Shown: piece by piece, positions 14,338 through 32,879 of the stretch
Position numbering within the stretch: the first letter of the stretch is position 1
Layout of the letters: each line of letters starts with the position of its first letter
Assembly: GCA_963713975.1 (NCBI GenBank)
Contig: OY970218.1
Location: forward strand, 1,216,001-1,280,000
Direction: 5' to 3'
DNA length: 64,000 nt
Source of the DNA: an uncultured Chloroflexia bacterium
Lineage (GTDB): Bacteria; Chloroflexota; Limnocylindria; Limnocylindrales; CSP1-4
Notes under the pieces: model-generated
What the model was told of the DNA's origin: nothing
Databases searched by the model: none
Seen by the model: the letters and a program-made list of their open reading frames with translations, nothing else
Position numbers and translations under genes: made by a program

Positions 14338-14617
14338 GACCGCAGGGTAGAACGGAACTGGGTGACAAACATCGATCCGCCCGTCATCAGGGTGGGCATT
14401 GTGGTTGTAGGAGAGTGGGTCCTAGCCGCGGGATAGCCCATTCGGCCGGTCCTTGCGAGCGCAATTACCACGCATTTCACATGCCCCCCCGGCTCGCCCT
14501 ACGGATGGTTGTGGACGAGTGCGCGCCGTAGTGGGAGCGGCGCGGGTCGGCGCGATGGCCAGATGTCGAGAACCGGCCGGAGGCCAGCATGCGGGCATGA
14601 TCAGATCGAGCCGACGG

Positions 14618-14732
14618 AGGGAGACCGTCGGGGCGGGCTGTCCAGATCTCGTGGCCGCCGGCGATCAGTCCTCATCGCCGCCAACGTCCGGCTTCGTGTC
14701 CGCCTGCGTCCAGATTCCTATGGCCGCCGTCA
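14618..14732 (-). mobile_element. Solo IS21-family terminal remnant
   Basis: 14631-14732 aligns ungapped with 56952-57053 at 89/102 identity; no adjacent transposase. Confidence 0.85.
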
Positions 14733-14790: not shown

Positions 14791-14839
14791 GTACACAATC
14801 CGGCTTGACTAGCGTCCACAGGCAGCGCAGCATGCCGCC
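14791..14839 (+). promoter_or_regulatory. Leaderless promoter with GTACACA box (Tad/T4SS operon)
   Basis: GTACACAATCCGGC-TTGACT-N17-CAGCAT-N6-ATG. First 29 nt are 25/29 identical to 39736-39764. Confidence 0.75.
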
Positions 14840-15148
14840 ATGCAGAACGTCATCGGCATCCGAACCCTTCGCCGGCAGGTGAACGAGTCGCTCCTGCGCG
14901 TGGCGCGCGGCGAGACGATCGTCATCGCCCGGCACGGGCGTCCGGTCGCAATCATGCGGCCGATCACCGACGGCGACACGGGCCGGCGGGTATCGGTCAC
15001 GACGTTCCGCCGCAACCTGCGGCGGGCCCTGGTCGTGACGCGACGCCGGCCGATCGTGCTCACCTGGTATGGCGACGGGGCCGCGGTCATCGCGCCCGTG
15101 CCCCCGGAGCTTGAGATCGCGTACGACGACGAAGAGGAGCTGGAATGA
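14840..15148 (+). CDS. Tandem Phd/YefM-domain protein
   Basis: IGIRTLRRQVNESLLRVARGETIVIARHGRPVAIM, then a second unit VSVTTFRRNL...PIVLTWYGDGAAVI. Confidence 0.8.
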   Translation: MQNVIGIRTLRRQVNESLLRVARGETIVIARHGRPVAIMRPITDGDTGRRVSVTTFRRNLRRALVVTRRRPIVLTWYGDGAAVIAPVPPELEIAYDDEEELE

Positions 15149-15744
15149 CGGCGGGCGGCATGATCCAGGCGCTCGGGATGCGCGAGGTCCGCGGCAACAT
15201 GCGCGCGGTCGTGGCCCGGGTCGAAGAGGGCGAGGCGCTCGTCGTCCTGCGCGACGGCCAGCCGAGTGCTGTCATGCTCGCCTTCGCGGAGGCGCAGCGC
15301 TGGCAGCAGATCGAGCGCGCCCTGTCCGCGTTCCACGGCCTCGAGATCTACCCGGAGCTCGCCCGCGACACGCCCGAGCTGGCCCGGATCGTTCGGCGCG
15401 AGACCCGGCCGTCGGGTGCCGCGGTGCGCCGGCTCGCTGACCAGTCGCGCGACATCCTTGCGCCGCTGCGGACGATGGGGATCACGGACGCCCGCACGAC
15501 GTTTGCAGCGATCCTCGACGAGATCGAGGCCGGGCGGACACTCACGATCGTGTCGTCGGGCCGGTTCGCCGCGACGCTCGTGGCCCCCCGGGAGTTCGAC
15601 CGTCTGCGAACGCTCGACCGCACCGTGAGCTGGTTCCGCGCGGCCGGCCTCGACCTCAGCATCGCCGACGAGGCCGCTGTCGGTGCCTTCGTCCGGGAGT
15701 TCGCGACTCGGTCGGCTGCCTCCGACGCCGCGGCGGCCGGGTAG
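15145..15744 (+). CDS. Tandem Phd/YefM-domain protein
   Basis: LGMREVRGNMRAVVARVEEGEALVVLRDGQPSAVM and MGITDARTTFAAILDEIEAGRTLTIVSSGRFAATL. ATGA overlap with the previous gene. Confidence 0.8.
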   Translation: MTAGGMIQALGMREVRGNMRAVVARVEEGEALVVLRDGQPSAVMLAFAEAQRWQQIERALSAFHGLEIYPELARDTPELARIVRRETRPSGAAVRRLADQSRDILAPLRTMGITDARTTFAAILDEIEAGRTLTIVSSGRFAATLVAPREFDRLRTLDRTVSWFRAAGLDLSIADEAAVGAFVREFATRSAASDAAAAG

Positions 15745-15752: not shown

Positions 15753-16148
15753 ATGATGCGGCGGTTCCCGCGCCACGCGATGGTCGCCCGCCTGTGGGTC
15801 GCGGCCCCCTTCGTCGTCGTGCTCCTGTGGCTCGCCGCCGGGTCGACCGTCCTCGGCGCGGACAGCGTCCCGCGGGGCGCCAAGGAGGCGCTCGCGCCGG
15901 TGACGAAGATGATCGGGACCCTGGTCGCGATCGCGATCGGCTTGGGGATCGCGATCTGCGGCGCGGTGATCGTCTGGGGCGGGATCGAGAAGACGCTCGC
16001 GGGCGCGAACCAGGACGCCGAGCATCGCGCCTCGCGGCGGATCCAGAACGGGATCCACGGCCTCGTCTGGATGATCCTGGCGTCCGTCATCGTGTCCACG
16101 ATCACGGCGATCGCGGTCGCCTACGGGCTTATCAACACGCCCTTCTGA
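15753..16148 (+). CDS. VirB2/TrbC-like T4SS pilin
   Basis: Signal-like N-terminus and two TM helices around WGGIEKTLAGANQDAEHRASRRIQNGIHGL. Confidence 0.7.
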   Translation: MMRRFPRHAMVARLWVAAPFVVVLLWLAAGSTVLGADSVPRGAKEALAPVTKMIGTLVAIAIGLGIAICGAVIVWGGIEKTLAGANQDAEHRASRRIQNGIHGLVWMILASVIVSTITAIAVAYGLINTPF

Positions 16149-16161
16149 GGTACCCCTGAGC

Positions 16162-17295
16162 ATGCTGACGACCGGGGGCTTGGTTCCCCATGCCCTCCAG
16201 AGCCCGGAGACGGGTGCCGATGCGACCTGGCAGGTGCCGCCTGTGGGCCTCGCCCTCGCCCTTCTCGCGGTCCTGGGGCTTGGGCTCGCGCTGCTCGGGC
16301 AGGCCATGCCGTCGCCGATCGCACCCGTGCCGACAACGGCGGAGCGCGCCGCGCCCCAGGCGCCGGTCGGCGACATCCCGATCCTGGGCGATCCGGTCCG
16401 CGACCTCACGGTCTGGTACTCGGACCGCGTGCGCGACGCCAACCGCGCGGCGCTCGACAACCTGCGGGGCCAACTCCTCACGCCGATCGACCCGCTGAAC
16501 GACAAGGTCACCCGCACCCTGTACGGCCCGATGGTGCTGATCACGATCCCGCTGCTGACGTTCGGCGGCCTCGTCCTGGGCTACCTGATCATGGTCAGCG
16601 GGACGAGCGGGGAGACGGCGTACGCGGCCCGCTCGGTCGCACCGCGGTTCGTCGTGGGGGCGACGCTCGCGATCCTGGGCATCTTCCTCGTGTCGGTGAT
16701 CACCCAGTTCGTCTCGGCGCTCGACGCGGCGATGGTCGGCGTCGCGCTGCCGGCGTCGGCGGTTGGCGATGCGGCCGCCTGGCCATCGACCGGCGGTGTG
16801 TTCCTCGTCCTCCAGCAGGGCGGCTTTGATCCCCAGGTCGCCCAGGGGCCCGACAACTGGAACAGCGGGGCGTGGCTCTCGTCGGGGCTGCTCGCGGGGA
16901 TCCTGACGACGTGCCTCGCGATGCTGAACTGGCTGTTGGCCGGGGTCGAGCGGCTCCTCGTGCTCGTCGGGCCGCTGTGTCTGGCCGCCTACGCGATCCC
17001 GGCCACCGAGCGCGTGACGAGGCTCTGGTTCAAGGTGCTCATCGTCGTCCTGGCGATGCGGTTCGCCTGGGCGATCACGTTCGTCCTGTTCAGCCTCCAG
17101 GCGGGCGCCTACATGGGCGCTTCGGGGGCGCCGGCGACGGTGGCCGACATGAATGTCCTGCTCGGCCTGGCCGCGGGTGCGGCGGCGATGATGCTCGGCC
17201 TCCCGCTGGTGCTGATCCCGGTCGCACTTGCGGGGCCGCAGATCCTCGACGTCGGGAGCGCCGCGCGGACCGTCGCCGCGCTGCGGTACCTCTAG
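16162..17295 (+). CDS. VirB6/TrbL-like polytopic membrane protein
   Basis: Multiple TM helices with ERLLVLVGPLCLAAYAIPATERVTRLWFK. Lies between the pilin and PrgI genes. Confidence 0.65.
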   Translation: MLTTGGLVPHALQSPETGADATWQVPPVGLALALLAVLGLGLALLGQAMPSPIAPVPTTAERAAPQAPVGDIPILGDPVRDLTVWYSDRVRDANRAALDNLRGQLLTPIDPLNDKVTRTLYGPMVLITIPLLTFGGLVLGYLIMVSGTSGETAYAARSVAPRFVVGATLAILGIFLVSVITQFVSALDAAMVGVALPASAVGDAAAWPSTGGVFLVLQQGGFDPQVAQGPDNWNSGAWLSSGLLAGILTTCLAMLNWLLAGVERLLVLVGPLCLAAYAIPATERVTRLWFKVLIVVLAMRFAWAITFVLFSLQAGAYMGASGAPATVADMNVLLGLAAGAAAMMLGLPLVLIPVALAGPQILDVGSAARTVAALRYL

Positions 17296-17297
17296 CG

Positions 17298-18725
17298 ATG
17301 CCGAACCTCGTCGACGTGCCCGAGAACGCCGTCCGCGAGGAGCCGCTGGCGTTTGGGCTCACGGCGCCACAGCTGCTGATCTGCGGGATCGCGGTGGCGA
17401 TCGGCGCGGTGATCCAGCTCATCCCCATGTGGTTACCTCTCCAGATCCTGTTGACGGTGCTGCTCGCGGGCCCGGTGCTGCTCGCGGCGATCCTGCCGAT
17501 CCGGGGTGAACCGGCCTACCGGTGGTTGCTTCGCTGGGTCCGCTACCGGCGCGGTCCGCGCACCTGGCACGCCGTGCTCGGTCCGGATCCACATAAGTCG
17601 CAGATAAGTGAGGAGGCGCACCCTGTCGTGGCTCCGCCCCTCGCGGCCGCAAGCGCGAATACGGCAAGTCTCGGACTTGACGGCAGGGAGGGACAGGTAG
17701 ACCTTGCGGGGGATTCGGCTCCGAGCGTCCAGGAGCAGACATCGATGGGTGAGCGCACCGTCCGACTCCGGGTCGTCGAACTTGACGACGAGGGTCCGGC
17801 GCCCGACCGTTCGAACACGGAAGGCGCGCCACACGAGCGACCCTCGGCAATCCCGCACGTGCTCCCTGGCCTGCGCGTCGTCGCCATCACGAGCTTTGCC
17901 GGTGGGGTGGGCAAGACCACGCTCGCGGTCGAGGTCGCGACGCTGGTCGCGTCCCGTGCCCGGATCCGCTCGCTCGAGGGCACAGAACAGGCGGTCCGTG
18001 TCCTGATCCTCGACGCGTCGCGACTCGCGAGCGCCGTCGGCCTGCGCCTGGGGCTCGACCCGGCCGCCCTGGCAGCCGCCTGGAGCCATCGGATCTGGCG
18101 TGATCCCTCCGCCATCGGGGACCTCGCTGCGGGCACGCGGTGGGGGGTTGATGTGCTCACCCTGCCGCCCCACCCCCAGCTCACCGCGCACGACGGACAG
18201 GCCGACCCACGAGCTGGGGTCTTCGGTGCTGTCGAAGCCGACGCGCTCCTCGAGGGCGTCCAGCGCGCGGGGTATCACCTGCTGGTGACGGACCTGGGCG
18301 GCGTGCTGGAGGACGGCCACCGCCAGCTCATCGACCAGGCCGATGTCGTCCTTGGCGTTGTCCGACCGACCCTCGAGTCGCTCCCGGACGTGTTCCGGCT
18401 CGCGACCGTGCTTCGGCTCCAGGGGATGGGTCGCAAGCTCGGGATCGTCGCCAACGGCGCGGACGACGACACCGAGGTCAAGCGGCTGGCGCGCGAGGCC
18501 GACGTGCCGCTGCTCGGGCGCGTCGGCATCGATCCGGTGTTCACGGTCGCGGCCGACCGCGGCGAGCCCGCCTGGTCCATCGCACCGGCGCGGACGGGCG
18601 AGCTCGTCGGTGTCGCGCGGGCCGCTTGGCCGCTGCTCTCCGATGCGCCCGGGCGCATGACGCGCAGGCGCTCGGTGCTGCGTGCCGTCCGCGACGCGAT
18701 GCCGGCTCCCGGAGGCAACCAGTGA
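17298..18725 (+). CDS. PrgI (VirB3-like) domain fused to a TadZ/CpaE/MinD-like P-loop ATPase
   Basis: N-terminal VDVPENAVREEPLAFGLTAPQLL plus two TM helices; C-terminal SFAGGVGKTTLA, LILDA, VTDLG, ADVVLGVVRP. Confidence 0.75.
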   Translation: MPNLVDVPENAVREEPLAFGLTAPQLLICGIAVAIGAVIQLIPMWLPLQILLTVLLAGPVLLAAILPIRGEPAYRWLLRWVRYRRGPRTWHAVLGPDPHKSQISEEAHPVVAPPLAAASANTASLGLDGREGQVDLAGDSAPSVQEQTSMGERTVRLRVVELDDEGPAPDRSNTEGAPHERPSAIPHVLPGLRVVAITSFAGGVGKTTLAVEVATLVASRARIRSLEGTEQAVRVLILDASRLASAVGLRLGLDPAALAAAWSHRIWRDPSAIGDLAAGTRWGVDVLTLPPHPQLTAHDGQADPRAGVFGAVEADALLEGVQRAGYHLLVTDLGGVLEDGHRQLIDQADVVLGVVRPTLESLPDVFRLATVLRLQGMGRKLGIVANGADDDTEVKRLAREADVPLLGRVGIDPVFTVAADRGEPAWSIAPARTGELVGVARAAWPLLSDAPGRMTRRRSVLRAVRDAMPAPGGNQ

Positions 18726-20026
18726 GCACGGAACAGTCACCAGGGTTCGCCCGTGCCCCGCTCTCGTCGGCCACGCTGGGGACCGTCCGGCGGATGCTCG
18801 TCGCGCGCCTCGCGCCCGAAGTGCTCAACCCGTTCGGGCGCACCGAGGAACAGGAGGCGACGCTCCGTCGGACGATCGGCGAGATCCTGGCCGAGCCAGA
18901 GCTCGACCTCGACACGTCGCCGGCACTCGTCGCTGCGGTCGAGGCCGCCGTCTGTGGCCTCGGGCCGCTGCAGCCGCTCGTCGATGACCCGCTGATCGGG
19001 GACATCCTGGTCAACGGCCCAGGAGAGATCTTCATCGAACGCGAGGGCCGCCTCGAGCCGACCGCCGTCACGCTCGGATCCGCCCGAGAGGTCATCGAGC
19101 TTTCCGAGCGGATCGCCGCCCTGGCCGGGCGCGAGCTCTCCGTCGCCCACCCGGTGGTCGATGCCCGGATGCCCGACGGGTCGCGGGTCAACGCCGTCAT
19201 CCCGCCGGTCGGCGGCCCGTACCTCTCGATCCGCAAGTTCAACCGGCTGCGACTCGACCTCGTGCCGGGCGGCCGGCATGGTCGCAACTGGGTCGCCGAG
19301 GGCGGCCTCGATCCCGCCATGGCCGACCTCATCGCCCGTCTCGTGCGAGCGCGCGCGAACATCCTGGTGGCGGGCGAGACGGGCGCCGGCAAGACGACGT
19401 TCCTGCGCTCGGTGACCGACCTGTTCGATCCGGCCGAGCGCATCGGTGTGGTCGAGGACACCGCTGAGCTCGCGCTCGAGAACCCCGACCGGTTCAACCT
19501 CGAGACGCTCCACCCGCACGACCTCACGGGGGGCGAGGCGGACGCGCGCCTGCTCGACGTCGGGGACCTCGTCGCGAACGCCCTGCGGATGCGGCCCGAC
19601 CGGCTGATCGTGGGCGAGATCCGCCTCCCCAAGGAGGCGTTCTACACGCTCCAGGCGCTCCACACAGGACACGACGGATCGGCCACGACCATCCACGCCA
19701 GCAGTGCCGAGGATGCCCTGTTCCGGCTCGAGCTCCTGGCGCGCCAGAGCATGCGCGACCTCACGATCGTCGACCTGCGGACCTACATCGCGCGCGTGTT
19801 CGACCTCGTCGTCGTGCTGCGCCGCCTGCGGTCGGGCCGGCGCATCGTCCGCCAACTGACCGCGGTCGACGGCCTCGCCCCCGACGGGGGCTACCGCCTC
19901 GTCGACGTGTTCCGTGCCGAGGCCTCGCAGGGGTCAGAGGTGATCCGGTTCGTGCGCGACCTCGAATGGCGGCCATCGCCGCGGCTCCTGGCGCGTTTCG
20001 AGATCGAGGGCGAACGATGGAGCTGA
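18722..20026 (+). CDS. tadA: Tad pilus assembly ATPase TadA/CpaF
   Basis: GLGPLQPLVDDP, DARMPDGSRVNAV, GETGAGKTT, ALRMRPDRLIVGE, TGHDGSATTIHA. Confidence 0.92.
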   Translation: MSTEQSPGFARAPLSSATLGTVRRMLVARLAPEVLNPFGRTEEQEATLRRTIGEILAEPELDLDTSPALVAAVEAAVCGLGPLQPLVDDPLIGDILVNGPGEIFIEREGRLEPTAVTLGSAREVIELSERIAALAGRELSVAHPVVDARMPDGSRVNAVIPPVGGPYLSIRKFNRLRLDLVPGGRHGRNWVAEGGLDPAMADLIARLVRARANILVAGETGAGKTTFLRSVTDLFDPAERIGVVEDTAELALENPDRFNLETLHPHDLTGGEADARLLDVGDLVANALRMRPDRLIVGEIRLPKEAFYTLQALHTGHDGSATTIHASSAEDALFRLELLARQSMRDLTIVDLRTYIARVFDLVVVLRRLRSGRRIVRQLTAVDGLAPDGGYRLVDVFRAEASQGSEVIRFVRDLEWRPSPRLLARFEIEGERWS

Positions 20027-20892
20027 TCGGGGCCCTCGCGGTCGGTGTCGCGGTGTTCGCGGCCCTGATGGCGTTGCTGCCATCGCGGGCGCAACCTTCG
20101 CTTGGACTCGGGATGCGGTTGCGAGTGGCGTACGCGGCACGGATCGAGGCGGCCGCGTCACTGCTCGGCCGGGCCCGCTTGGAGATCTCGCCACGCAGCT
20201 ACCTCGCGCTCTCGGTCGCGGCCCCGGTCGCCCTGGGACTCCTGGGGCTGCTGCTCTCGGTGCCGATGGGGATCCTGGGGGTCATCGTCGGCGGCCTCGT
20301 CCCGCGCTGGTACGTCCGCTATCTCGTGGGCTCCGAGGCACGCGCCGCGGCCGACGATGCGCCACGGGTCCTGCGCGCCATGGTCAACCGGGCAGCGTCC
20401 GGCGGCACGTATCCGGACCTGTTCGCGGCGGCGGCCGAGGCGGCCCGCCACCGCTGGGTGAAGGCCGACTTCGAGGAAATTCTCGGTCGCTACTACGCGA
20501 ACGAGCCCCCGGCAGAGGTGCTCATCGACGTCCGCCGGCGCCAGGCGGGGCGGAACCTCGCCCTCGTCTACGACGCGCTGATCACCCTCACCCGGACCCA
20601 TCAGCCGGTCTCGGCCGCGGCCGACGTCCTGGGCTCGCTCGGCGAGGCGGCGCGCGCGAACCAGTCCATCGCCCGCCAGGCCGCCGCCGAGAGCAAGGGG
20701 CTGCGGCTCCAGGCGGCGATCCTCGCGATCGTCATCCCTGCCCTGTTCCTGTACCTCACGCTGGTCAACGGGGAACTGATTGCGCCCGTCATGGCGACCC
20801 CGCTCGGGCGCTACGTCCTGCTGCCCGCAGCCGCCCTGCTCGAAGTCGCAGGCATCGTCCTGTCCTGGCGCGTCACGAGGCTGGAGGCGTAG
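20017..20892 (+). CDS. tadB: Tad pilus inner-membrane platform protein TadB
   Basis: T2SSF-like topology directly after tadA. Confidence 0.8.
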   Translation: MELIGALAVGVAVFAALMALLPSRAQPSLGLGMRLRVAYAARIEAAASLLGRARLEISPRSYLALSVAAPVALGLLGLLLSVPMGILGVIVGGLVPRWYVRYLVGSEARAAADDAPRVLRAMVNRAASGGTYPDLFAAAAEAARHRWVKADFEEILGRYYANEPPAEVLIDVRRRQAGRNLALVYDALITLTRTHQPVSAAADVLGSLGEAARANQSIARQAAAESKGLRLQAAILAIVIPALFLYLTLVNGELIAPVMATPLGRYVLLPAAALLEVAGIVLSWRVTRLEA

Positions 20893-20896
20893 GGCG

Positions 20897-21802
20897 ATGG
20901 AGCTCGTGGGAACGGCCGCGGTTGCACTCGCGGTGTTCTGCCTGTGCATGGCGGTGTTCGGCGGATCGCTGCTCACGCCGCGGCGACTCGACGCGATCCG
21001 CGCGGTCGCGCTTCCGAGGCAGCAGTACGAGCGCCTCGTGTCGGACGACCAGCCGCTCTGGGAGCGGATCCTGCGCCCCGTCGCGGTGCGCCTCGCCGCC
21101 AGGGCGCCCGCATTCGCGTCCCAGGTGAGCGAGCGCGACCTCATCCGGGCTGGGTTCGACCCGCAGGTCCTCACTCCCGCCGAGGTCTACGCCGCCAAGG
21201 TGGTGCTTGCTGCCGCCATCCTCGCGGTCGGCTTCGCCCTCACCCCGCTGTTCTCCGCGGCGCTGCTGGTCGCGCTCCCGATCGCCTTTGTGGGCTACGT
21301 GTTCCCGACCGAGTACCTGGCGTCTCGCGCCAAGGCGCGCCAGGCCCAGATCGGGCGCGAGCTCCCGGACTTCCTGGCGCTCGTGCGTCCGCTCGCCGCG
21401 AAGCACGGCCTCGAGCACGCGGTGGCGGACGTGGCCGACGCGCTCCACGAGGCGTCCGGCGGCGGCAACCTGCTCGCCCGCCAGATCCGCGGCGCCGTGG
21501 CGGCGTACGGCACGGGCACGGATCTGTACGCCGCGTTGCGCGACGTCGCGGCGGCATCGGACATCGAGGCGCTCGACGAGCTGGCCGCTGCCCTGGCGCA
21601 GTCACGAAAGCTCGGCAAGGGCGTCGGCGAGACCCTCGGCGAACACGAACGTTCGCTCCGCGACGCCGAGCGCAACCGGCTCATCGGTGCCGCCTCGACG
21701 GTGCAGCCGAAGCTTGCCGCAATCCTGGCCGGGATCTATCTGCCCGCGTTCGTCCTGCTCATCGTGGTCCCGCTGTTCGCCTCGACACTCGGTCGAATCT
21801 AG
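20897..21802 (+). CDS. tadC: Tad pilus inner-membrane platform protein TadC
   Basis: RQAQIGRELPDFLAL, ALAQSRKLGKGVGETL; second T2SSF paralog. Confidence 0.85.
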   Translation: MELVGTAAVALAVFCLCMAVFGGSLLTPRRLDAIRAVALPRQQYERLVSDDQPLWERILRPVAVRLAARAPAFASQVSERDLIRAGFDPQVLTPAEVYAAKVVLAAAILAVGFALTPLFSAALLVALPIAFVGYVFPTEYLASRAKARQAQIGRELPDFLALVRPLAAKHGLEHAVADVADALHEASGGGNLLARQIRGAVAAYGTGTDLYAALRDVAAASDIEALDELAAALAQSRKLGKGVGETLGEHERSLRDAERNRLIGAASTVQPKLAAILAGIYLPAFVLLIVVPLFASTLGRI

Positions 21803-21818
21803 TTACCGGAGGTGCGCC

Positions 21819-22016
21819 ATGAACCTAACTGACCTGCGACACCTGCTCCGGCGGATCTGGGCCGCGGTCCACGCCGATGAACGGGGCCTGACGACGCTCG
21901 AGTACGTGATTGCGGCCGGGATCATCCTCGTCGTGCTGGCGGCGGCGATCCTCGCCTGGAACAACGGGCTCGCCGCGAAGATCGGCGATCTCGTTCGTCA
22001 GCTGTCGGGGTCATGA
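21819..22016 (+). CDS. flp: Flp type IVb pilin
   Basis: DERG/LTTLEY prepilin cleavage motif followed by a hydrophobic helix; GGAGG RBS. Confidence 0.9.
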   Translation: MNLTDLRHLLRRIWAAVHADERGLTTLEYVIAAGIILVVLAAAILAWNNGLAAKIGDLVRQLSGS

Positions 22017-22438
22017 GACCGCCACGGAACGCGCTGCCGGCGTGGCAGCGGCGACGAGGCGAGGCGGGAGCGGCGGCGGTCGAGGCGGTCCTCGTCGTGC
22101 CGCTCGTGCTGATCCCGGTTCTGTTTGCGGTCTTCATCTTCGGTCGTCTCGCGCACACCCGGATCGTGCTCGACGCCGCCGCTGCGGCGGGGGCGCGCCA
22201 GGCTGCCGTCGCAGGCGCAGACACGCCGACCGTCCGTGGCCGCATCGCGACCGAGCTGCGCGACGGGGGATTGAATCCGGCCCATGTCAGTGTGACCATC
22301 GAGCCATCGGTGGCCGGCTGGGGCGAGCCGATCCACATCCGCCTCGCGACCGACGAGGAGGCCGGCATCCCGTTCCTGGGCACCTGGCCCATTCCGATGT
22401 CGTCGGAGTTCGTCACCCGGAGCGAGGTGACCCACTGA
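22013..22438 (+). CDS. tadE: TadE-like pseudopilin
   Basis: EAG/AAAVEAVLVVP and AAAAGARQAAV. Confidence 0.85.
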   Translation: MRPPRNALPAWQRRRGEAGAAAVEAVLVVPLVLIPVLFAVFIFGRLAHTRIVLDAAAAAGARQAAVAGADTPTVRGRIATELRDGGLNPAHVSVTIEPSVAGWGEPIHIRLATDEEAGIPFLGTWPIPMSSEFVTRSEVTH

Positions 22439-22935
22439 TGACGCGATCGCGGACCCGGGTCGGCGAGCGTGGCCAGGTCGCCGTCTACGCGATCCTGCTG
22501 TTCCCGCTGCTCATGCTCGTCCTCACGCTGGTGCTCGCGGTCGGTTCGATCGAGGGCCTGCGGACCCGGATCCGGGCGCAGCTCGACATGGCGGCGCTCA
22601 CCGCCACCCAGGCGCTCGACATCGCCGCGCTCGCGCGCGGTGGTGAGCCCGTGCTGGACGCCGCTACAGCCGACGCGCTTGCCCGTGAGTACCTCGCCCG
22701 GAACCTCGCCACCCTCGGTGATCAGATCGTCGCGTCGCCGACGTCGATTGCCGCCGCGGCCGAGGTCGTGGTCACGAACTCAGCAGGCGTCGACCCCATC
22801 ACCGGCGCCTCCAATACCGCGCCGACGGTGAGCATCCGTATCAGGGTGCCGGCACGCATTCCGCTGCTCGGCCTCGCCGGGCTGGACACCACCGTCGAGC
22901 TGACGCTCACCGGCTCGGCGGCTGCGAGGAGCTGA
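22438..22935 (+). CDS. TadG-like pseudopilin
   Basis: ERG/QVAVYAILLFP...LDMAALTATQ; TGATG coupling. Confidence 0.75.
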   Translation: MTRSRTRVGERGQVAVYAILLFPLLMLVLTLVLAVGSIEGLRTRIRAQLDMAALTATQALDIAALARGGEPVLDAATADALAREYLARNLATLGDQIVASPTSIAAAAEVVVTNSAGVDPITGASNTAPTVSIRIRVPARIPLLGLAGLDTTVELTLTGSAAARS

Positions 22936-22937
22936 CG

Positions 22938-23504
22938 ATGACGACCCCCAGCCGCATTCGGACCCCGATCCTGGCAGTGGCAGCGATCGCTCTCGGGCTC
23001 GCGGTCGTCGGCGGAATTCTGCTCGCCGGCCGGGTGGGCGTGTCCGATGCCACGCCTTCGCCGTCGATCGCGACATCGGCGGCGCCGACCGCGACGCCGA
23101 CGCCCGCCCCGACGGATCCGCTCTCGAGCCCCGAGGGGGCGGTTCGCGCGTTCTTCGCGGCTTTCGGCGAGGCTCGACGAACCGATGATCCGTCGGCGCT
23201 CGTGGCACTCGTCACCAGCACCGACTCCTCGGCCTACCTCACGGCATCGGGGTTCCTCGCGGGTCAGAAGGCGGACGGGAAGGCGTCGGTCTTGACGACC
23301 AACGAGATCCGCGACCTGGTCGTCGTCCCCGATGGTGATCGAGCGACCGTGACGTTCCTCCACCACCAGGTTGGCTTCGACATCGACCTCGCGACCGGCG
23401 AGCCGAAGGAGAGCCCAACTGCCCTGCCCGACGCCACCGTGCGGGTCGTCGTCGTCCGAACTGGCGATCGATGGCTCGTGGACTCCTTCGAGAACGTCCC
23501 ATGA
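22938..23504 (+). CDS. Membrane-anchored extracytoplasmic protein (NTF2-like fold suspected)
   Basis: N-terminal TM, Pro/Thr linker, SPEGAVRAFF...GDRWLV. Confidence 0.65.
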   Translation: MTTPSRIRTPILAVAAIALGLAVVGGILLAGRVGVSDATPSPSIATSAAPTATPTPAPTDPLSSPEGAVRAFFAAFGEARRTDDPSALVALVTSTDSSAYLTASGFLAGQKADGKASVLTTNEIRDLVVVPDGDRATVTFLHHQVGFDIDLATGEPKESPTALPDATVRVVVVRTGDRWLVDSFENVP

Positions 23505-24706
23505 GGCGGCGGCTCCTATGGCTCGGAGCTGTGGTCGCAGCCACGGCGCTCGCCCTTGTGCCGCAGGGCAGCGCCCTTGCCATTGACGATGTCAGCGTCA
23601 CGGTCAAGACCTGGCACGCGGGCGCCGGCCGCGCCTACGTCGGCGTCCAGACGGCCGGGCAGTGGGCGCCCCCGAACAGGCGGTCCTGCGTCGGCTACTA
23701 CTCGACCTGGGACCACATCGCAAGGATCGACACCCGACCGGTCCGCGACGAGTGGTACGTCAAAGCGCACACGTGCTCCGGCAGCACCGTGAACCCCTTG
23801 AGTCCGACGATGGTGCTCACGAGTCGCACAAGCCCGGGCATCGGGATCCGGCGTGAGACAACGGGACGGCTCCGGCTCGACCTCGGGGTCGCAGTCGACC
23901 CTGTGACTGCTCCCGCAGGCACGGTCCGGACGGTCACGGCAGCGCTTGCCGGCGACTGGTTGGACGCGATCGGGGACGAGATCAGCGCCTACGTCATCCG
24001 CGACTCCGTCCGCGTCCGGCGCTGGACGGTCGACTTCGGGGACGGCACGGTGCGGACCATCGCGCCCGATCCTGCTGCGCCCACTCGGCTCGCGACGACG
24101 CATCCCTATGGCCCAGGCGAGTTCCAGGTGACGGTGACGGCGCGCGTCACGGGCACTGCCTACGGCGCCTTCTTCACGCCCGCCGGAACCCCGTTCGAGG
24201 ACAGTGTCCCGTTCGCGCTCGACCTCACCAATGCCGCCACGGGGATCGCGGGGCTGCCGATCGAGTACGTCCCGCCGGTCGTCACCGTCGGTGGCAGCCC
24301 GTCGGGCTCCCTGCCGGACGGCACCACAGCCACGCCCGATGCTACCGGGCACGCGGCGATCTTCTGGCCCCGGGGCCTGCCGTGTGACCTCTTCGTCCGC
24401 CCAATCATCGAGCGGGAGGGCTTCATGCGATCGGGTGGCGTGGTCATCGGCGGCGGCAGGACGCGGCTCGTCGGGTACCGCTACACAGCCGGCACCAACG
24501 ATGCTGTCGATGCAAGCAGGAACGGCGTGTATCCCGCCGCTGTGCCCATCCGGATCCAGTGGAACACGCCGCTGCCTGGGACAAGGTCATACCCCGTCCG
24601 GCTCGTGCTCGACCTCGAGACGACCTATGACGACGGGACCGTTCGTGCCTCGCAGGTCTCAGGGACGGTGGACGTGACCGTCGTTTACTCCGCGGTCAGC
24701 CAGTAG
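23501..24706 (+). CDS. Secreted beta-rich protein with PKD-like domain (candidate pilus adhesin)
   Basis: Signal peptide; WTVDFGDG...THPYGPGEFQVTVT PKD-like motif; lies inside the Tad operon. Confidence 0.65.
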   Translation: MRRRLLWLGAVVAATALALVPQGSALAIDDVSVTVKTWHAGAGRAYVGVQTAGQWAPPNRRSCVGYYSTWDHIARIDTRPVRDEWYVKAHTCSGSTVNPLSPTMVLTSRTSPGIGIRRETTGRLRLDLGVAVDPVTAPAGTVRTVTAALAGDWLDAIGDEISAYVIRDSVRVRRWTVDFGDGTVRTIAPDPAAPTRLATTHPYGPGEFQVTVTARVTGTAYGAFFTPAGTPFEDSVPFALDLTNAATGIAGLPIEYVPPVVTVGGSPSGSLPDGTTATPDATGHAAIFWPRGLPCDLFVRPIIEREGFMRSGGVVIGGGRTRLVGYRYTAGTNDAVDASRNGVYPAAVPIRIQWNTPLPGTRSYPVRLVLDLETTYDDGTVRASQVSGTVDVTVVYSAVSQ

Positions 24707-24719
24707 GGGAGGTGCCACC

Positions 24720-25412
24720 ATGCGTGCCCGCCGGACCGTCTACATCGTCATCTTCGTCGCGGCGAGCCTGATCGCCGCGGGCGCCTACTACCTTGCCCAG
24801 CCGCGCATCGACGTGGTGCGTGCCCGCCAGGACATCGCGGTGCTCACCCCGATCAGCGCCGACATGGTCGAGCTCGTCCGGGTCAGCCCGCTCGGTGCCC
24901 CATCCTCCTCGGCCCGCTCGCTCGACGCCGTCGTCGGGCAATATGCGGCGCTGCCGATCCTCGCCGGTCAGGACGTCGATACCCGGGCGATCGAGGTGAC
25001 GCCCGGGTCGCAAGCCTTCGGCTTCGGAGCACCGCTCGGTCCCGGCGAGGTCGCCTTCGCGCTCCCTGTCGCTGCCGACCAGGCGGTCGGCGGTGCGTTG
25101 TCGCCTGGTGCCCGTGTCGACGTCATCGCCGTCCCCAACGAGCTCAAGACCGGCTTGGCTGCGGCGAGTCCCGGGCCCGGCGCGGTCACGATGGGCCAGG
25201 GTCTCACGATCCTTGCGCTGCGGACGAGCGACGGACACCAGCTCACCGATGTGGCAGCCGGCGGATCGACGGCGGTCGTCCCGCCGAAGCTCGGCTCCGT
25301 GGTCGTCGCCATTCCCGCAGAGCGAGTCGCCGACTTCGCGACCGCGGCGCTGACCTCGACGTTCTACCTGGCCCTCGACCCGGGACAGCCGGGGGCGGCG
25401 GCGGTGCCGTGA
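24720..25412 (+). CDS. cpaB: Flp pilus assembly protein CpaB/RcpC (SAF domain)
   Basis: VVRARQDIAVLTPI, VGGALSPGARVDVI. Confidence 0.85.
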   Translation: MRARRTVYIVIFVAASLIAAGAYYLAQPRIDVVRARQDIAVLTPISADMVELVRVSPLGAPSSSARSLDAVVGQYAALPILAGQDVDTRAIEVTPGSQAFGFGAPLGPGEVAFALPVAADQAVGGALSPGARVDVIAVPNELKTGLAAASPGPGAVTMGQGLTILALRTSDGHQLTDVAAGGSTAVVPPKLGSVVVAIPAERVADFATAALTSTFYLALDPGQPGAAAVP

Positions 25413-25559
25413 CCAGAACCTTGCGCTGATTGGTCGTCGAGCCCGCTGGCCCTGAGGATCGGGCACCTGCCGGTCCGCTGACCGGCGATCTGCCTGGGAC
25501 CAGCCGCGGGTCGGCCAGGCCCTCGCGGAGCGCAACGCGAGACGGAGGCGTCCTGCCTG

Positions 25560-25696
25560 CTATCGCAGGATCGACGCGACCGCCTGCTCCCTCTTCTTTG
25601 AGAGCGCGCCGATCTGATCTCGCGGATGTTGCCGTCCGCGCTGATGAAGATGTGCGTCGGGATCCCCGCGAAACGGTAGGCGCCGCCGATGGTCGC
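25560..25696 (-). pseudogene. Decayed 3' fragment of a TlpA/ResA redoxin
   Basis: ATIGGAYRFAGIPTHIFISADGNIREI / IGALSKKREQAVASILR parallels the C-terminus of 36870..37466. Confidence 0.75.
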
Positions 25697-25957
25697 CCCC
25701 CGGACGCGGATCAGGGTGAGGATCGCGGACGATCAGGGACCGGGGAAGGGCCGTTGAGAGGATCGAGCGACGCCGGATGGCGGGTGGCTGTGTGCGGTCT
25801 GTCAGTCCGGCGCGTCCATAGGCCCGGGCCGGTGCCCGCTCGCGGCCGCGAGGCTGTCCGGTCGACCGCCCGCACCCCGTGAAACGGTTTGGCTCTGACA
25901 GGTACCAACCCAGGTAGAGGGCGCGACCCGCGCCCCGACGCATGGGACGGGACCACG

Positions 25958-26407
25958 GTGAACGATCGGATCTGGCGGAGCGTTTCGGGGGCGGCCGTGG
26001 CCGCGTCCCTTGTTGCAGCGGGCGCCATCGGCGCCACGGCCATCGGCGCCGATGCCGACTCCTCGGGGCAGCAGGCCCCGGTGCGAGCCGTGGTCGCAGC
26101 GCCGGTCACCGCGAGCCCCGGGCTCCAGGCGCCGGTGCCGACGCCGATGACGTGGCCCGCTCTCACCGACCGCGAGGACCACGCGGCCATCCCGGCCCCG
26201 AGTGCCACCCCGCGGGCGACGAACAAGCCTGCGCCCGCCTGGACCCACCACCCGGCCGCGACGCCGCGCGTCACGCATCATCCCGACCCCACGCCGCGCG
26301 CGACGCACCATCCGCGCGCCACGCCCCATCCGCGCGCCACGCCCCATCCCACTGAGGCGCCGCATCACGGTGGAGATCATGGCGGCGGTCATGGCGGCGA
26401 CGACTGA
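25958..26407 (+). CDS. Secreted Pro/His-rich low-complexity protein
   Basis: Signal peptide, THHP/TPHP repeats, HHGGDHGGGHGGDD tail. ECF-like TGAAAC at 25880 upstream. Confidence 0.65.
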   Translation: MNDRIWRSVSGAAVAASLVAAGAIGATAIGADADSSGQQAPVRAVVAAPVTASPGLQAPVPTPMTWPALTDREDHAAIPAPSATPRATNKPAPAWTHHPAATPRVTHHPDPTPRATHHPRATPHPRATPHPTEAPHHGGDHGGGHGGDD

Positions 26408-26410
26408 GGC

Positions 26411-27225
26411 ATGGCCAACAGGGGCCGGACGGGCCCGGTCAACTGGCCTCAAGGCCCCTGTGCCGGCTCGCCAGCTCCCGTGACGATGTCGCCGGCCTCA
26501 CCGTCGCACACGCTGGCGGTCCGTCCCGGGCCGGGAGGGCACCAACGATCCGCACGACCATCACCGCCCCCGCTGATGACGCCCTCCCGGTCGTCGAGTG
26601 CGACGAGGATGCGCGCCGTGTCGTCAGAGCCGTCCTTGCCGGTGACCGCGACGCCTTCGCCCGCCTCGTTGATCGCGAGATCGGCAACGTCAACCGTGTC
26701 TGCTACCGGGTGCTGGGCGACCGTCATGATGCCGAGGAAGCCGCCCAGGAGGCCTTCGTGAGCGCTTACCGCACGCTCCCGGCCTGGCGGGGGGACGGAC
26801 CCTTCGGCGCCTGGGTGGCCCGGATCGCGCTGCACATCGCCCTCCGCCGCCGCAAGAACGCGCGTCCAGTCGTCTGGATCGACCCAGCGGCGCTGGACGG
26901 CCCGGACCCGCTCTCGGCGGGCGCCGATGGCGGCGGCCAGCGGAGGGTCACCAGGCACTTCCGGGACGCGTCGGTCGAGGCGGCACGGACGAACGATCCC
27001 GCCGAGATCGCTGTCACGATGGAGCGCGAGGCCTCCGTCCGCGACGCGCTGCTGGCCCTCGACGAGCCCTACCGCGAGACGGTCGCGCTCCGCTACTTCG
27101 CCGGGCTCACCGTCCCCGAGATCGCCGAGGTCTGTGCCCGGCCCCAGGGCACCGTGAAGACCCACCTCCACCGGGGCCTGCTGCGCCTGCGGGGCCATCT
27201 CGACGACGCGGGGGCCGACCGATGA
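26411..27225 (+). CDS. ECF sigma factor (start unresolved)
   Basis: AGDRDAFARLV...DAEEAAQEAFV...FGAWVARIA and region 4 EIAEVCARPQGTVKTHLHRG. The frame runs upstream of 26710 with no ATG/GTG, implying a frameshift from ATG 26411 or a CTG start. Confidence 0.85.
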
Positions 27226-27923
27226 CCGGCCGCGGTGCCGTGAACAACCCCTGGGAGGCCGACCCTGTTGCACCTGCCGACGCCGAACACATGCGGTCGG
27301 CGGCTGCCGAGCTCGAGCGGTTCGCGCTGGCGACCGACATCGCGCCGCGGGTGGGGTTCGGCGCCCAGATCATGGCGGCCCTCGAGGCGGATCCTGTTCC
27401 CGCGCCGCTGACGGCGCTCGGCGCCGCCACGCGACGGAGGCACCTTCGCGCCATGCTGGCCGCGCTGGGCGACGCGTGGCGGGTGGCCTGGAGCGGCGGC
27501 CGGCCGGCGGCAATCCGGTTGTCCGCGGCGATGACCGTGCTGGTGCTGGTCGTGGCGGCCGGGTCGCTGGGCAGCCTCGCCGCGGTCGGCGCATGGAGCG
27601 CCCTCCAGCCGCCCCAGCCAACTCCAACCCCATCGCTGCCGGTGGACCTGGTCCCGGTCATCGTGCCGCCGGCAGACCCGCGACCCTCGCCCAGCGAGGC
27701 GCCCGCGACGGCGGCGCCAAGCGGGTCCTCCACACCGTCCCAATTGCCGCGCCTCACACCGTCGGCGGTCCCGGTGCGCACACCCCGGCCCACCGTGAAG
27801 CCGAAGCCGACGCCGAGGCCCACTGCGAGGCCGACGCCGCGCCCGACACACCATCCTGAGCCGACGGCCGTGCCGGAGGCGACGCATCACCCCGAATCGA
27901 CCCACGCTGCCGGAGGCGACTGA
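27222..27923 (+). CDS. Putative membrane anti-sigma factor with Pro-rich THHP tail
   Basis: ATGA-coupled to the ECF gene; single TM helix; Pro/Thr-rich C-terminus. Confidence 0.65.
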   Translation: MTGRGAVNNPWEADPVAPADAEHMRSAAAELERFALATDIAPRVGFGAQIMAALEADPVPAPLTALGAATRRRHLRAMLAALGDAWRVAWSGGRPAAIRLSAAMTVLVLVVAAGSLGSLAAVGAWSALQPPQPTPTPSLPVDLVPVIVPPADPRPSPSEAPATAAPSGSSTPSQLPRLTPSAVPVRTPRPTVKPKPTPRPTARPTPRPTHHPEPTAVPEATHHPESTHAAGGD

Positions 27924-27967
27924 GCAGGCGGAGGAGAGCTGACCCGTCCGCTAGCTGTGATGACCGC

Positions 27968-29080: not shown

Positions 29081-29155
29081 CGGCGTAGTCTCGGCAGGAC
29101 ACCTTGGCGGCGCAAGGACACACGGCCCGCGTCCGTCGGCCAACCGACCCGCGCG

Positions 29156-30343: not shown

Positions 30344-30380
30344 TGGACTCCTCCATGAGGGCGGCGGCACCCGGGCGCCG

Positions 30381-31022
30381 TCAGCAACAGTCGTCCTCGC
30401 CGCGCCAGGCCTCGCGTGCCTCCTTCGTGATGAACACGGTCATCCCAAGGGCCGCGACCGGGTCGGCCCACCACCACCCGAGCAGGGCGTTGAGGCTGAT
30501 CCCCACGAGCATCACGAGCGAGAGCCAGAAACAGGCGTTGGTCTGGAACGCGTCGGCCGTCATCGCCCGAGACCCCAGCGCGATCGCGACCCGCCGCTTC
30601 GCGCGCGCGAGCCACCACATTGCCAGCAGCGACGCCACGGCGAGCGCGATGCCCACGACCGACGGCTGCGGCCGCTCGCCCGCGAGCAGTGAGGTGACCG
30701 CGTCCCAGGCGATGTAGGCCGCGAGCAGGGCCAGCGACCCCGCCACGAGCTGCTGGGCCCGGCGCTCGACGTGCTCGACGCGCTCGTGATCCGTCGCCCG
30801 GCGCTCTGCGTGCAGCCGCCAGATCATCACGGAACCCGAGGCGGACTCCACGAACGAGTCCACCCCGAAGCCGATGAGCGCCACCGACCCCGCGGCCGCG
30901 CCGGCGGCGATCGCGACGACCCCCTCGACCAGGTTCCAGCCGACGGTGAGGTACTCGAGGCGCAGCGCCCGGCGGAGCAGCGCGGGGCGGCCGGGCTCGA
31001 CGGCGGCGGCGATGGTCGTCAT
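30381..31022 (-). CDS. CDF-related cation transporter (TM domain only)
   Basis: LEYLTVGWNLVEG, GFGVDSFVE, WWWADP, terminal CC. Confidence 0.85.
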   Translation of the reverse strand: MTTIAAAVEPGRPALLRRALRLEYLTVGWNLVEGVVAIAAGAAAGSVALIGFGVDSFVESASGSVMIWRLHAERRATDHERVEHVERRAQQLVAGSLALLAAYIAWDAVTSLLAGERPQPSVVGIALAVASLLAMWWLARAKRRVAIALGSRAMTADAFQTNACFWLSLVMLVGISLNALLGWWWADPVAALGMTVFITKEAREAWRGEDDCC

Positions 31023-31912: not shown

Positions 31913-31952
31913 CAGGACACCGGACCAAGCAGGGCAGCGGGTCTCGCCAGCA

Positions 31953-32812: not shown

Positions 32813-32821
32813 GCCTCAAGT
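32802..32821. promoter_or_regulatory. Putative SmtB/ArsR operator
   Basis: Inverted repeat ACTTGAG-N6-CTCAAGT overlapping the ArsR start codon. Confidence 0.6.
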
Positions 32822-32863
32822 ATGAACCCGGACCCGCGGATCGCGCCATGTGCCAGACGATAC

Positions 32864-32879
32864 ACGACACCCCTGTCGT
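32864..32879. promoter_or_regulatory. Putative BlaI/CopY-family operator copy 1
   Basis: ACGACA-N4-TGTCGT, also present at 36097 and 37975. Confidence 0.65.

Follow-up and report, generated by a model that had tools for sequence, protein, structure and literature searches.

We analysed a 64,000-nucleotide stretch of DNA from an uncultured, soil-type Chloroflexia bacterium (GCA_963713975.1, contig OY970218.1; this whole stretch is called the window) and found the genes of two machines in one operon, a type IV secretion system (T4SS) and a secretin-less Tad (type IVc) pilus. In our numbering the window was G000:C1:1216001-1280000, and it lay on one 3.62-Mb contig (G+C 70.8%). The first machine was a monoderm-type T4SS composed of VirB2-like, putative VirB6-like, PrgI, putative VirB8-like, VirB4, SLT+M23, VirD4-like and candidate MOBC-type relaxase components. 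The second was a Tad system with a TadZ domain, TadA, TadB, TadC, Flp, TadE, TadG and CpaB. The strongest clue to a physical coupling of the T4SS and the Tad pilus was a fusion of PrgI to TadZ in one protein. We interpret the element as one of a family of Chloroflexota integrative and conjugative elements (ICEs; class Limnocylindria by the names of the related records), in which a monoderm Tad pilus is probably part of the mating apparatus. Beyond a few Firmicutes adhesins, little is understood of the ways in which monoderm bacteria that have no sex pili locate a mating partner and keep hold of it, and conjugation in Chloroflexota is essentially unstudied. The element family offers a compact and conserved candidate answer, a retractile Tad pilus in a transfer operon. 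The genes of the window element suggest that single-membrane bacteria catch mating partners in a way not described before.

The six-frame open reading frame (ORF) lists were crowded because of the high G+C content. Gene models were picked by third-position G+C and then compared with Pfam and NCBIfam. On the + strand, positions 14840-25412 held 14 tightly packed genes in the order phd1, phd2, VirB2-like, VirB6-like, PrgI::TadZ, TadA, TadB, TadC, Flp, TadE, TadG, orf188, orf411 and CpaB. The gaps at the 13 junctions from phd1 to cpaB ranged from -10 to +16 nt, and six of these junctions were overlaps. The genes for VirB4, an SLT+M23 hydrolase, a VirD4-like ATPase and Replic_Relax were consecutive, overlapped by 4 nt and started 14.4 kb past cpaB. 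The run was a non-random arrangement, because the order from phd1 to CpaB was colinear on one strand in 38/38 related loci with at least five detectable genes (tblastn with the window proteins). The original prediction, made from the same DNA, had described a run from virB2 to cpaB that started at 15753 and was followed by virB4, virB1, virD4 and Replic_Relax. Pfam, ORFs and Foldseek placed every gene that it named at or near the expected position. The run began two genes earlier, at phd1 (14840), and the downstream group was not contiguous with it, with 14.4 kb of unrelated cargo in between.

The fusion gene (17298..18725, + strand) encoded a protein of 475 amino acids (aa), and its PrgI (VirB3-like) part was recognised by PF12666 (29.8 bits against a cut-off of 27). 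Residues ~1-95 formed a PrgI domain with two transmembrane segments, ~96-185 a variable linker and ~190-450 a MinD/ParA-type TadZ ATPase. The PrgI and P-loop parts lay in a single reading frame from 17298, two bases past the preceding stop. ParA/CbiA-type P-loop matches of the C-terminal half in Pfam were under the cut-off. When the C-terminal domain was compared with the resident TadZ of the host genome using hhalign, the probability was 97.8 with E 7.8e-13 and 29% identity (residues 193-445 against 160-399). The N-terminus of the resident TadZ was a receiver domain. The element version of TadZ therefore carries a VirB3-like membrane domain where the resident one has its receiver domain. A search of the whole genome for PrgI matched nothing but the fusion (34.3 bits), which must therefore supply VirB3 if the T4SS needs one. 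In addition, the PrgI half matched the N-terminus of the SCO6880 family in NCBIfam. The original prediction had read prgI/tadZ as one item, which was right, and had not drawn out that this was a conserved gene fusion.

The fusion was searched for in a collection of 5.8 billion proteins, in which 8000 candidates were scored and 317 proteins matched at E<=0.001. It was full-length in 115 of the 120 clusters listed (at least 93% query cover, 46-87% identity, 455-509 aa), and the other five were shorter pieces. In the alignment the PrgI domain was strongly conserved, the linker was variable, and the ATPase domain was conserved with the Walker motif FAGGVGKTT. No match was obtained in 72,556 plasmid records at E<=1e-5. 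As a 'Rosetta-stone' fusion, the protein predicts contact between VirB3/VirB4 and TadZ/TadA. Complex prediction was performed with VirB4 and fusion residues 1-100, both entered as alignments, in three runs with three controls. The result fell in the weak-support range, with a score of 0.59 against 0.00 for the best control, runs that agreed on at least 85% of contacts and a partner predicted local distance difference test (pLDDT) value of 76. The mark used was reached by 116/157 solved complexes and 2/215 mismatches, and at a score of 0.60 or less by 18/157 solved complexes and both mismatches. Since VirB3-VirB4 complexes have already been solved, this pass may show likeness only. The fusion likely tethers the Tad pilus to the T4SS channel.

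The remaining Tad genes, all on the + strand, followed the fusion directly. TadA, a TadA/CpaF-type ATPase of 434 aa (18722..20026), had a GTG start that overlapped the preceding stop and matched PF00437 (T2SSE) with 140.9 bits against 24.9. Its best NCBIfam model was TIGR03819, 'TadA family conjugal transfer-associated ATPase' (232.7 bits, under the cut-off of 373). The platform proteins were TadB (20017..20892; T2SSF 24.7 bits, just under the cut-off of 25.2; found in 34 loci) and TadC (20897..21802; T2SSF 30.1 against 25.2 bits; found in 32 loci). The Flp prepilin (21819..22016, 65 aa) had no NCBIfam match and was identified as an ORF with a G/LTTLEY processing site, an example of the G/XXXXEY motif that we take to be the mark of Flp prepilins. 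The G, E and Y of the motif were invariant in 29/29 aligned sequences, which included two resident Flp proteins. The minor pilins were TadE-like (22013..22438; PF07811 41.6 against 22.9 bits) and TadG/TadF-like (22438..22935, 165 aa; PF13400 18.6 bits, under the cut-off of 22.3; 27 loci with 58-81% identity). CpaB/RcpC (24720..25412) was matched by RcpC (40.9 bits), SAF (28.9 bits) and TIGR03177 (62.2 bits, under the cut-off of 71). Between the minor pilins and CpaB, orf411/401 (23501..24706; found in 27 loci) encoded an exported protein with a weak PKD/Ig-like signal of the beta-sandwich type (PKD 18.8 bits, under the cut-off). An Atlas search with it gave sub-0.9 PKD/CarboxypepD_reg leads only, with scores of 0.76-0.80. 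Its product is a candidate surface or pilus-associated adhesin.

The best NCBIfam models of the element Tad proteins were the actinobacterial set TIGR03819, TIGR03815 and TIGR03816, all under cut-off, and the tad gene order was also the actinobacterial one. The host had a resident tad locus of the ordinary kind at C1:1.356-1.364 Mb (two to three flp genes, cpaB, tadZ, tadA, tadB and tadC). The element Tad was not a copy of it, because the two TadA proteins were only 38% identical and the gene order differed.

Exactly one A24 peptidase was found in the genome, a protein of 212 aa at C1:219637-220275. It lay ~1 Mb away and outside any tad locus, with an M17 aminopeptidase gene on one side and an M23 peptidase gene on the other. 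A search with this host A24 protein returned no match from the window or from 62 related loci (836 kb). The resident tad locus was likewise without an A24 peptidase of its own, and the G-x4-EY site was common to the resident and element Flp proteins. The single host peptidase likely serves the element Flp, judging from these sites and counts, and the borrowing of a host A24 enzyme put forward in the original prediction is plausible. In the host genome (92% complete), there were no PF00263 secretin matches and no Omp85 was found. A single-membrane (monoderm) envelope fits, because both were missing from the genome. The earlier description of a hybrid T4SS-Tad pilus operon in a monoderm-type conjugative element was supported.

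The T4SS genes were also on the + strand. The VirB2-like pilin (15753..16148, 131 aa) matched PF18895 with 28.0 bits against 26.6, and its sequence showed a signal peptide followed by two hydrophobic helices. It was conserved in 40 loci with a median identity of 79%. The original prediction had called this T4SS minimal and Gram-positive-like. This did not hold, since a VirB2-like pilin was present, and monoderm T4SS classes are said in passages of PMC12102498 to be without VirB2 homologues. In this family, a VirB2-like pilin forms part of a conjugative T4SS of the monoderm type. The next gene (16162..17295) encoded a polytopic membrane protein of 377 aa that had no Pfam or NCBIfam match. Its four best Foldseek matches in the PDB were all TrwI/VirB6 of R388, and its place between the VirB2-like and VirB3-like genes fitted VirB6. 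A profile search of PDB sequences with its alignment gave one match at E 0.15 and nothing useful. We call it VirB6-like with reserve. The product of orf188 (22938..23504; model pLDDT 88) comprised an N-terminal membrane anchor, a Pro/Thr-rich linker and an NTF2-fold domain. VIA-align superposed this domain on TcpC (3ub1; Z 10.6, root-mean-square deviation 2.3, 94 residues aligned) and on the VirB8 domain of PrgL (7aed; Z 10.0, root-mean-square deviation 3.1, 119 residues aligned). The modelled architecture was VirB8/TcpC/PrgL-like, and the assignment is tentative, the NTF2 fold being generic.

VirB4 (39785..42022, 745 aa) was identified by PF19044 (P-loop_TraG, 52.2 bits) and PF12846 (AAA_10, 31.8 bits), and its best NCBIfam model was the CD1110 family (190.3 bits, under the cut-off of 325). 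The cell-wall hydrolase (42019..42972; M23 111 bits, SLT 30.9 bits) would take the VirB1 role. It was followed by a membrane-anchored VirD4/HerA-type coupling ATPase of 790 aa (42969..45341; DUF87 44 bits, TrwB_AAD_bind 21.2 against 20.5 bits), which had weak NCBIfam matches to CedD and CD1115. The Replic_Relax protein (~45367..46341; start uncertain, with the ORF opening at 45130) matched PF13814 with 54.3 against 25.3 bits. PF13814 is listed as MobC in CONJscan in Table 1 of PMC5357655, and passages of that source describe it together with VirD4-type coupling proteins and serine integrases. A passage of PMC3424549 places the Replic_Relax family in the PD-(D/E)XK fold. The protein is a candidate MOBC-type relaxase with predicted nicking activity. 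No separate VirB11 was seen in the element by the Pfam scan of the window.

Related loci were collected with a profile of the fusion from contigs of one genome per species, which gave 45 loci. The records were named Chloroflexota, Chloroflexi or Limnocylindria-type for 43 of them, and the other two came from one metagenome-assembled genome (MAG) named Acidimicrobiia, for which a binning error is possible. Median identities across the loci were 47-79%, highest for the VirB2-like pilin (79%), TadA (78%) and Flp (74%). A CpaB match covering at least 30% was present in 25 loci, of which three ended too early and 22 reached at least 1.5 kb past cpaB. In 14 of these 22, virB4 came directly after cpaB (L047 was counted here, its VirB4 match overlapping the end of cpaB). 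Overlaps of 4 nt were seen in relatives at both the cpaB/virB4 and the virB4/hydrolase junctions, so there the Tad and T4SS halves make up a single operon. Further downstream, relatives carried the VirD4-like and Replic_Relax genes, adjacent in seven loci besides the window, and a ThiS/E2/JAB/ThiF module, with serine recombinases in L064 and L067. Genes split into adjoining pieces, including those for the fusion, TadA and VirB4, were observed in L027, L035, L036, L038, L046 and L048 and in genomes G019 and G371; these are either decay or long-read frameshift errors.

Co-occurrence was examined in a class sample of 401 genomes. The full-length fusion was present in 18 of them, in one case split, and the other 217 matching genomes had the ATPase domain alone, as an ordinary TadZ/ParA (six unpublished genomes of the sample enter only this count of 217). 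None of the 12 other genomes of the same genus had the full-length fusion. A strong VirB4 of this clade (>1000 bits) was found in 11/401 genomes, and the fusion was present in 11/11, on the same contig in ten. The spacing between fusion and VirB4 was 8.0-8.9 kb in nine genomes, 22.5 kb in the window genome (G000) and 28.8 kb in G025. Where the fusion occurred without a strong VirB4, it was near a contig end (G330, G161 and G275), a VirB4 piece lay on another contig (G026), none was found in a genome 84% complete (G289), or the copy was decayed (G019). Some genomes had several copies, with four loci from one MAG and two copies in G299. The distribution among close relatives was patchy and copy-variable, as for self-transmissible elements. 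Pairwise identities of VirB4 tracked those of TadB (r 0.94) and TadC (r 0.91; Mantel test, n=12 elements, p ~2e-4), although the loci are kin and these statistics overstate independence. The original prediction had staked its reading on joint conservation of the Tad and T4SS genes; in the relatives the two sets were conserved together, interleaved and co-diverged, clearly contrary to the result that would have refuted it.

The junction between cpaB and virB4 was the variable point of the operon. In the window it was occupied by the 14.4-kb metal/redox cargo (25413..39735), in which Pfam identified ECF sigma/anti-sigma, three CDF transporters, ArsR, a cysteine desulfurase, DsbA-like, PCYCGC, AhpC/TSA and BlaI/BlaR-like genes. 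The cargo genes had no counterpart in related loci, except two CDF transporter genes, whose homologues lay at one end of L042 and outside its element. Other DNA followed cpaB in 8/22 loci. In L011 and L030 the first gene past cpaB encoded a large serine recombinase on the opposite strand (L011 18441-19844; L030 9441-11213), and in the L011 lineage VirB4 resumed 32.6 kb later (G004:C64 165.4-198.1 kb). From the 8/22 loci, the junction is therefore an insertion hotspot of which the window holds one interrupted copy. Secondary integrative elements seem to target it. Within the cargo, the two predicted proteins that flank the ECF sigma gene (25889-26407 and 27222-27923) ended in His/Pro/Thr-rich repeats of a PTPRATHHP-like type. 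These tails, beside the CDF transporter cargo, may be metal-binding.

A promoter-like motif, GTACACAAT-N6-TTGAC-N17-hexamer-N6-ATG, preceded phd1 (14791..14839, + strand). It was present in the window and, with at most three substitutions, in 11 related loci (L007-L011, L013, L017, L035, L039, L040 and L045). A motif search revealed a second copy before virB4 (39736..39784, + strand). In the sequence searched, the motif occurred only before phd1 genes and, in the window, before virB4. The displaced virB4 of the L011 lineage was preceded by a similar arrangement with GTACAC repeats. The spacing to the ATG suggests a leaderless transcript, and the split halves of the operon seem to have kept a common control. 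The two genes that open the operon were phd1 (14840..15148; PF02604 34.2 against 29.8 bits), a Phd/YefM-like gene in 36/45 loci, and phd2 (15145..15744; PF02604 60.3 bits), which had two Phd/YefM-like stretches and was found in 40/45 loci. No toxin partner was recognised beside these two genes. Their products may be regulators rather than antitoxins, and it is our conjecture that the motif is a promoter on which the Phd-like proteins act.

Taken together, the genes allow a working model, every functional step of which we infer, including pilus retraction, recipient capture and tethering by the fusion. The operon would be read from the conserved promoter-like site before phd1. The Flp prepilin would be cut at G/LTTLEY by the only A24 peptidase of the host, and TadA, TadB, TadC and CpaB would extend the Flp fibre and probably retract it. 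In Caulobacter, one ATPase powers both pilus extension and retraction, according to PMC6920026. The fibre would catch a neighbouring cell and draw it in, which is the role of recipient-capture organelle that the original prediction had given to the Tad pilus and that could follow from these genes. In the membrane, the VirB3-like half of PrgI::TadZ would bind VirB4 and the TadZ half would organise the Tad motor, so that the pilus stands beside the T4SS channel. The hydrolase would open the wall, the relaxase would nick the element, and the coupling ATPase would feed the strand to VirB4/VirB6. By its gene content this would be pilus-assisted conjugation in a variant form, in agreement with the structure of the operon and its co-conservation.

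Other readings of the same genes were weighed. The Tad genes could be passenger cargo, a pilus for adhesion or biofilm that serves the host like the tad 'colonisation islands' of plasmids and has no transfer role. Homologues of TadA/CpaF were found in 619 plasmid records at E<=1e-30, 167 of them typed conjugative, the resident tad locus means that this type of pilus is at home in the lineage, and the Tad and VirB4 halves were split by insertions in 8/22 loci. However, cargo varied between the relatives while the Tad set stayed constant between virB3 and virB4 in all 38 colinear loci. The Tad genes also co-diverged with VirB4 (r 0.91-0.94) and were fused to the only VirB3-like domain of the element, and no close VirB4 of the clade was found without the Tad fusion (11/11 genomes). 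We regard a mere passenger role as decidedly unlikely. Tad ATPases as such are common on plasmids, and the novelty lies in the insertion and the fusion, not in a Tad system on a mobile element. The two sets of genes might also form one chimeric machine, in which TadA/B/C replaces VirB11 and assembles or energises the T4SS or the VirB2-like filament, or in which the Flp fibre is part of the DNA conduit. TadA did match the VirB11/TrbB models TIGR02788 (177.8 bits) and TIGR02782 (153 bits), both under their cut-offs, and the NCBI name of its nearest family speaks of conjugal transfer. The lack of a separate VirB11 is as this reading expects, and direct contact would fit both the VirB3::TadZ fusion and the weak-support prediction for VirB4 and PrgI. 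However, a complete ordinary Tad set was present, for which an ordinary Flp pilus is the simpler product, and monoderm T4SSs function without VirB11. Such a machine appears unlikely. A related and bolder idea is that PrgI::TadZ docks the Tad motor on the VirB4 hexamer in a single chimeric nanomachine of the monoderm envelope, whose Flp fibre would extend and retract at the VirB6 channel or through it and bring the recipient surface, or even DNA, to the translocon. We consider it rather doubtful; if true, type IV filaments and T4SSs would have been joined independently for a third time, and here for the first time through a gene fusion that hard-wires them.

The apparatus could instead act in contact-dependent import, killing or effector delivery and not in DNA donation, as with the archaeal Ced/Ups pili or the Kil Tad pilus of Myxococcus. 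This reading gains from two weak NCBIfam matches, one between the coupling ATPase and CedD (E 1.3e-10) and one between VirB4 and CedB (E 0.002), and from the lack of a nearby recombinase in this copy. Passages of PMC12102498 describe VirB2-like pilins beside VirB4, PrgI and VirB6 in Patescibacteria, a sister phylum, where the T4SSs with such a pilin are mostly without relaxases and are thought to be co-opted. The Tad-like pilus of Myxococcus works with another secretion system, according to PMC12075869. However, a Replic_Relax/MOBC gene followed the coupling ATPase in the window and in seven further loci, serine recombinases lay at the ends of relatives, and the patchy, multi-copy distribution was that of self-transmissible elements. 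In addition, the same block of VirB4, VirD4, Replic_Relax and hydrolase was found on Streptomycetaceae plasmids. A function other than DNA donation is thus highly improbable.

Several observations weighed against a Tad pilus in the mating apparatus of an ICE. The Tad and VirB4 halves were separated by insertions in the window copy and in 8/22 relatives, and because of this, tight transcriptional coupling of the two halves is dispensable. A VirB2-like pilin was already present, and a second contact filament is not obviously needed. The identities of the VirB6-like protein tracked neither VirB4 nor TadB (Mantel r 0.29-0.33, p ~0.08, n=9), and its label depended on a poor model (pLDDT 63.5) with Foldseek E values of 0.012-0.078. 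The best NTF2 matches of orf188 were ARC6/PARC6 (ARC6 Z 14.0), above TcpC and PrgL. Several scores were under curated cut-offs (TadB T2SSF, PF13400, TIGR03819, CD1110 and TIGR03177). The complex prediction gave weak support, and for the textbook pair VirB3-VirB4. Genome G005 (locus L007) had the Tad half, and Replic_Relax was not found there with the window query. The loci, as kin, may represent few acquisition events. No tyrosine recombinase (PF00589) or large serine recombinase (PF07508) was found in the window or within 450 kb of it, and the nearest Resolvase-domain gene lay 22-25 kb to the right of the window and was 35% identical to that of a relative. The earlier statement that secretin, prepilin peptidase and integrase were missing was accurate for the window; for the integrase it did not extend to the family, since relatives carried serine recombinases at the far end.

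Type IVb 'thin' pili help T4SS conjugation on IncI plasmids and in ICEs of the PAPI-1 type. The IncI plasmids R64 and TP114 and PAPI-1 likewise bring together a T4SS and a type IV filament on one conjugative element. Their pili are type IVb, belong to diderm hosts and are encoded by a separate pil operon with its own peptidase or accessory genes. In contrast, the window filament was of the Tad/Flp type (type IVc), secretin-less, encoded between virB3 and virB4, gene-fused to the T4SS and without its own peptidase. The type IVb pilus of TP114 (IncI2) is described as making or stabilising donor-recipient contact. In passages of PMC12102498, the type IV pili of R64 are said to cooperate with the T4SS in donor-recipient contact rather than DNA carriage, and the archaeal Ced system is said likewise to work with type IV pili. 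The MPF-FATA T4SSs (CTn2/CD1110 and PrgH-PrgI-PrgJ-PrgK-PrgL of pCF10) had in common with the window a PrgI/VirB3-like protein, VirB4, a wall hydrolase and the lack of outer-membrane parts, and the putative VirB6-like and NTF2-fold VirB8-like proteins of the window would be further common features. However, the window had a VirB2-like pilin, its PrgI was fused to TadZ and did not precede VirB4, eight Tad genes were interposed, and its VirB4 scored under the cut-off of the CD1110 family. With canonical Tad/Flp systems (Caulobacter Cpa, Aggregatibacter Tad and the actinobacterial Rv3654c-Rv3660c type), the window shared the order TadZ-TadA-TadB-TadC-Flp-TadE-TadG, CpaB and the G/x4-EY site. It differed from them in that the TadZ receiver was swapped for a PrgI membrane domain, in that secretin, TadD/RcpB and its own TadV were missing, and in that the locus lay within a conjugation operon. 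In a full-text search of a library of papers outside subscription-only access, neither Tad genes placed within a T4SS operon nor a fusion of PrgI to TadZ was found described.

The nearest plasmid relatives of VirB4 were from Streptomycetaceae, with 33-35% identity over ~70% of the protein. The Streptomycetaceae plasmid blocks and cmd/SCO6878-6881 shared with the window the order of a PrgI-family protein, a VirB4-like protein, a type IV coupling protein (T4CP), a replication-relaxation protein and a wall hydrolase. The linear plasmid of Embleya sp. NBC_00896 (NZ_CP108778.1) encoded a PrgI-family protein, XF1762, a VirB4-like protein, a T4CP, a replication-relaxation protein and NlpC/P60. On the same strand 6 kb further on, it carried genes for a SAF/CpaB-like protein, a hypothetical protein, TadA, two T2SSF proteins, a small ORF, TadE, TadE/G and TadG. 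This complete tad cluster was a separate, unfused neighbour, whereas the window tad genes lay inside the T4SS operon and were fused to it. On p1 of Streptomyces sp. BHT-5-2, the T4SS block was present and no Tad gene was found within 20 kb with the window queries. From gene order, this looks like a series from a T4SS alone, through a T4SS with a neighbouring tad cluster, to tad inserted between virB3 and virB4 and fused, with the window as the end point. The family links Chloroflexota elements to the Streptomycetaceae plasmid T4SS blocks, which suggests that the two machines were first neighbours and became fused step by step. The Embleya region spanned 274386-297069 (L074 and L075), and PLSDB types the plasmid as non-mobilizable.

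The ends of the window copy were considered next to IS21 sequences. A solo IS21 terminal sequence (14617..14732, + strand) is the probable left edge of the element; over its 116 nt it shared 87% identity with the IS21 end at 56940-57053. It lay 108 nt before phd1 and was oriented as the end of the intact IS21 ~40 kb downstream. This intact copy (54337..57053, - strand; Pfam rve/IstB, ends mapped), with its istA/istB transposase gene pair at 54475-56930, is a possible right edge. In L041, a whole IS21 (4747-7398) was found at the same spot upstream of phd1. IS21 may bracket, or may have delivered, this integrase-less copy. A DUF488/orf313 pair lay just left of the IS21 in the window, and its homologues were just upstream of phd1 in L025, a position that a circular permutation would give. 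These results suggested that the element spans ~14.6-57 kb and may have entered by way of IS21 or been rearranged by it. Beyond the window, at G000:C1:1301848-1304943 (L071 5848-8943), we observed genes for an AAA_16 ATPase and a 511-aa Resolvase-domain protein, like the terminal pair of related elements. Between this pair and the window IS21 were ~29 kb of sugar-metabolism and regulator genes. The true right end of the element could be at this pair. The present mobility of the copy is uncertain, because no recombinase was near the conserved end of the element. No empty site was definable, as the flanking DNA (7400-14800 and 57800-63300) gave scattered gene-sized matches in 13 same-genus genomes by blastn. 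The G408 homologues of the left flank had neighbours whose counterparts lie at 657-674 kb of the window genome. No tRNA gene was found in the window. Two candidates were set aside. The tyrosine recombinase beside the element of L066 was considered as an integrase, and it was 65% identical to a gene at 2.27 Mb of the window genome and is probably a chromosomal Xer. G+C content did not mark the element, with segments at 0.68-0.734 against 0.708 for the genome (standard deviation 0.013 in 10-kb windows).

The genes around the operon belonged in part to the family backbone. A module of ThiS-like, E2, JAB and ThiF genes (49094..51995, + strand; Pfam and a ThiS-like match) was part of the conserved backbone of the element family. 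The E2, JAB and ThiF genes were downstream of Replic_Relax in 5/5 relatives examined (L064, L065, L066, L067 and L070), often with an AAA_16 ATPase gene next to them. PADLOC did not recognise the E2 and JAB proteins, and the ThiF protein weakly resembled BilD/E1-E2. Upstream of phd1, there was no broad conservation among 22 loci, which carried variable restriction and defence cargo (DUF499, methylases and type I/III subunits). In the window, this side held a Type ISP/IIG restriction-modification fusion enzyme (130-2655), which is truncated where the window begins; a Schlafen AlbA_2 protein followed (3374-4489). Downstream of Replic_Relax, a DUF5677 protein (46458-48107, - strand) matched the PADLOC model DitA with E 5e-27. 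Together with the 313-aa protein beside it, the DUF488 protein (both at 52240-53454) matched the candidate defence pair PDC-M19A/B.

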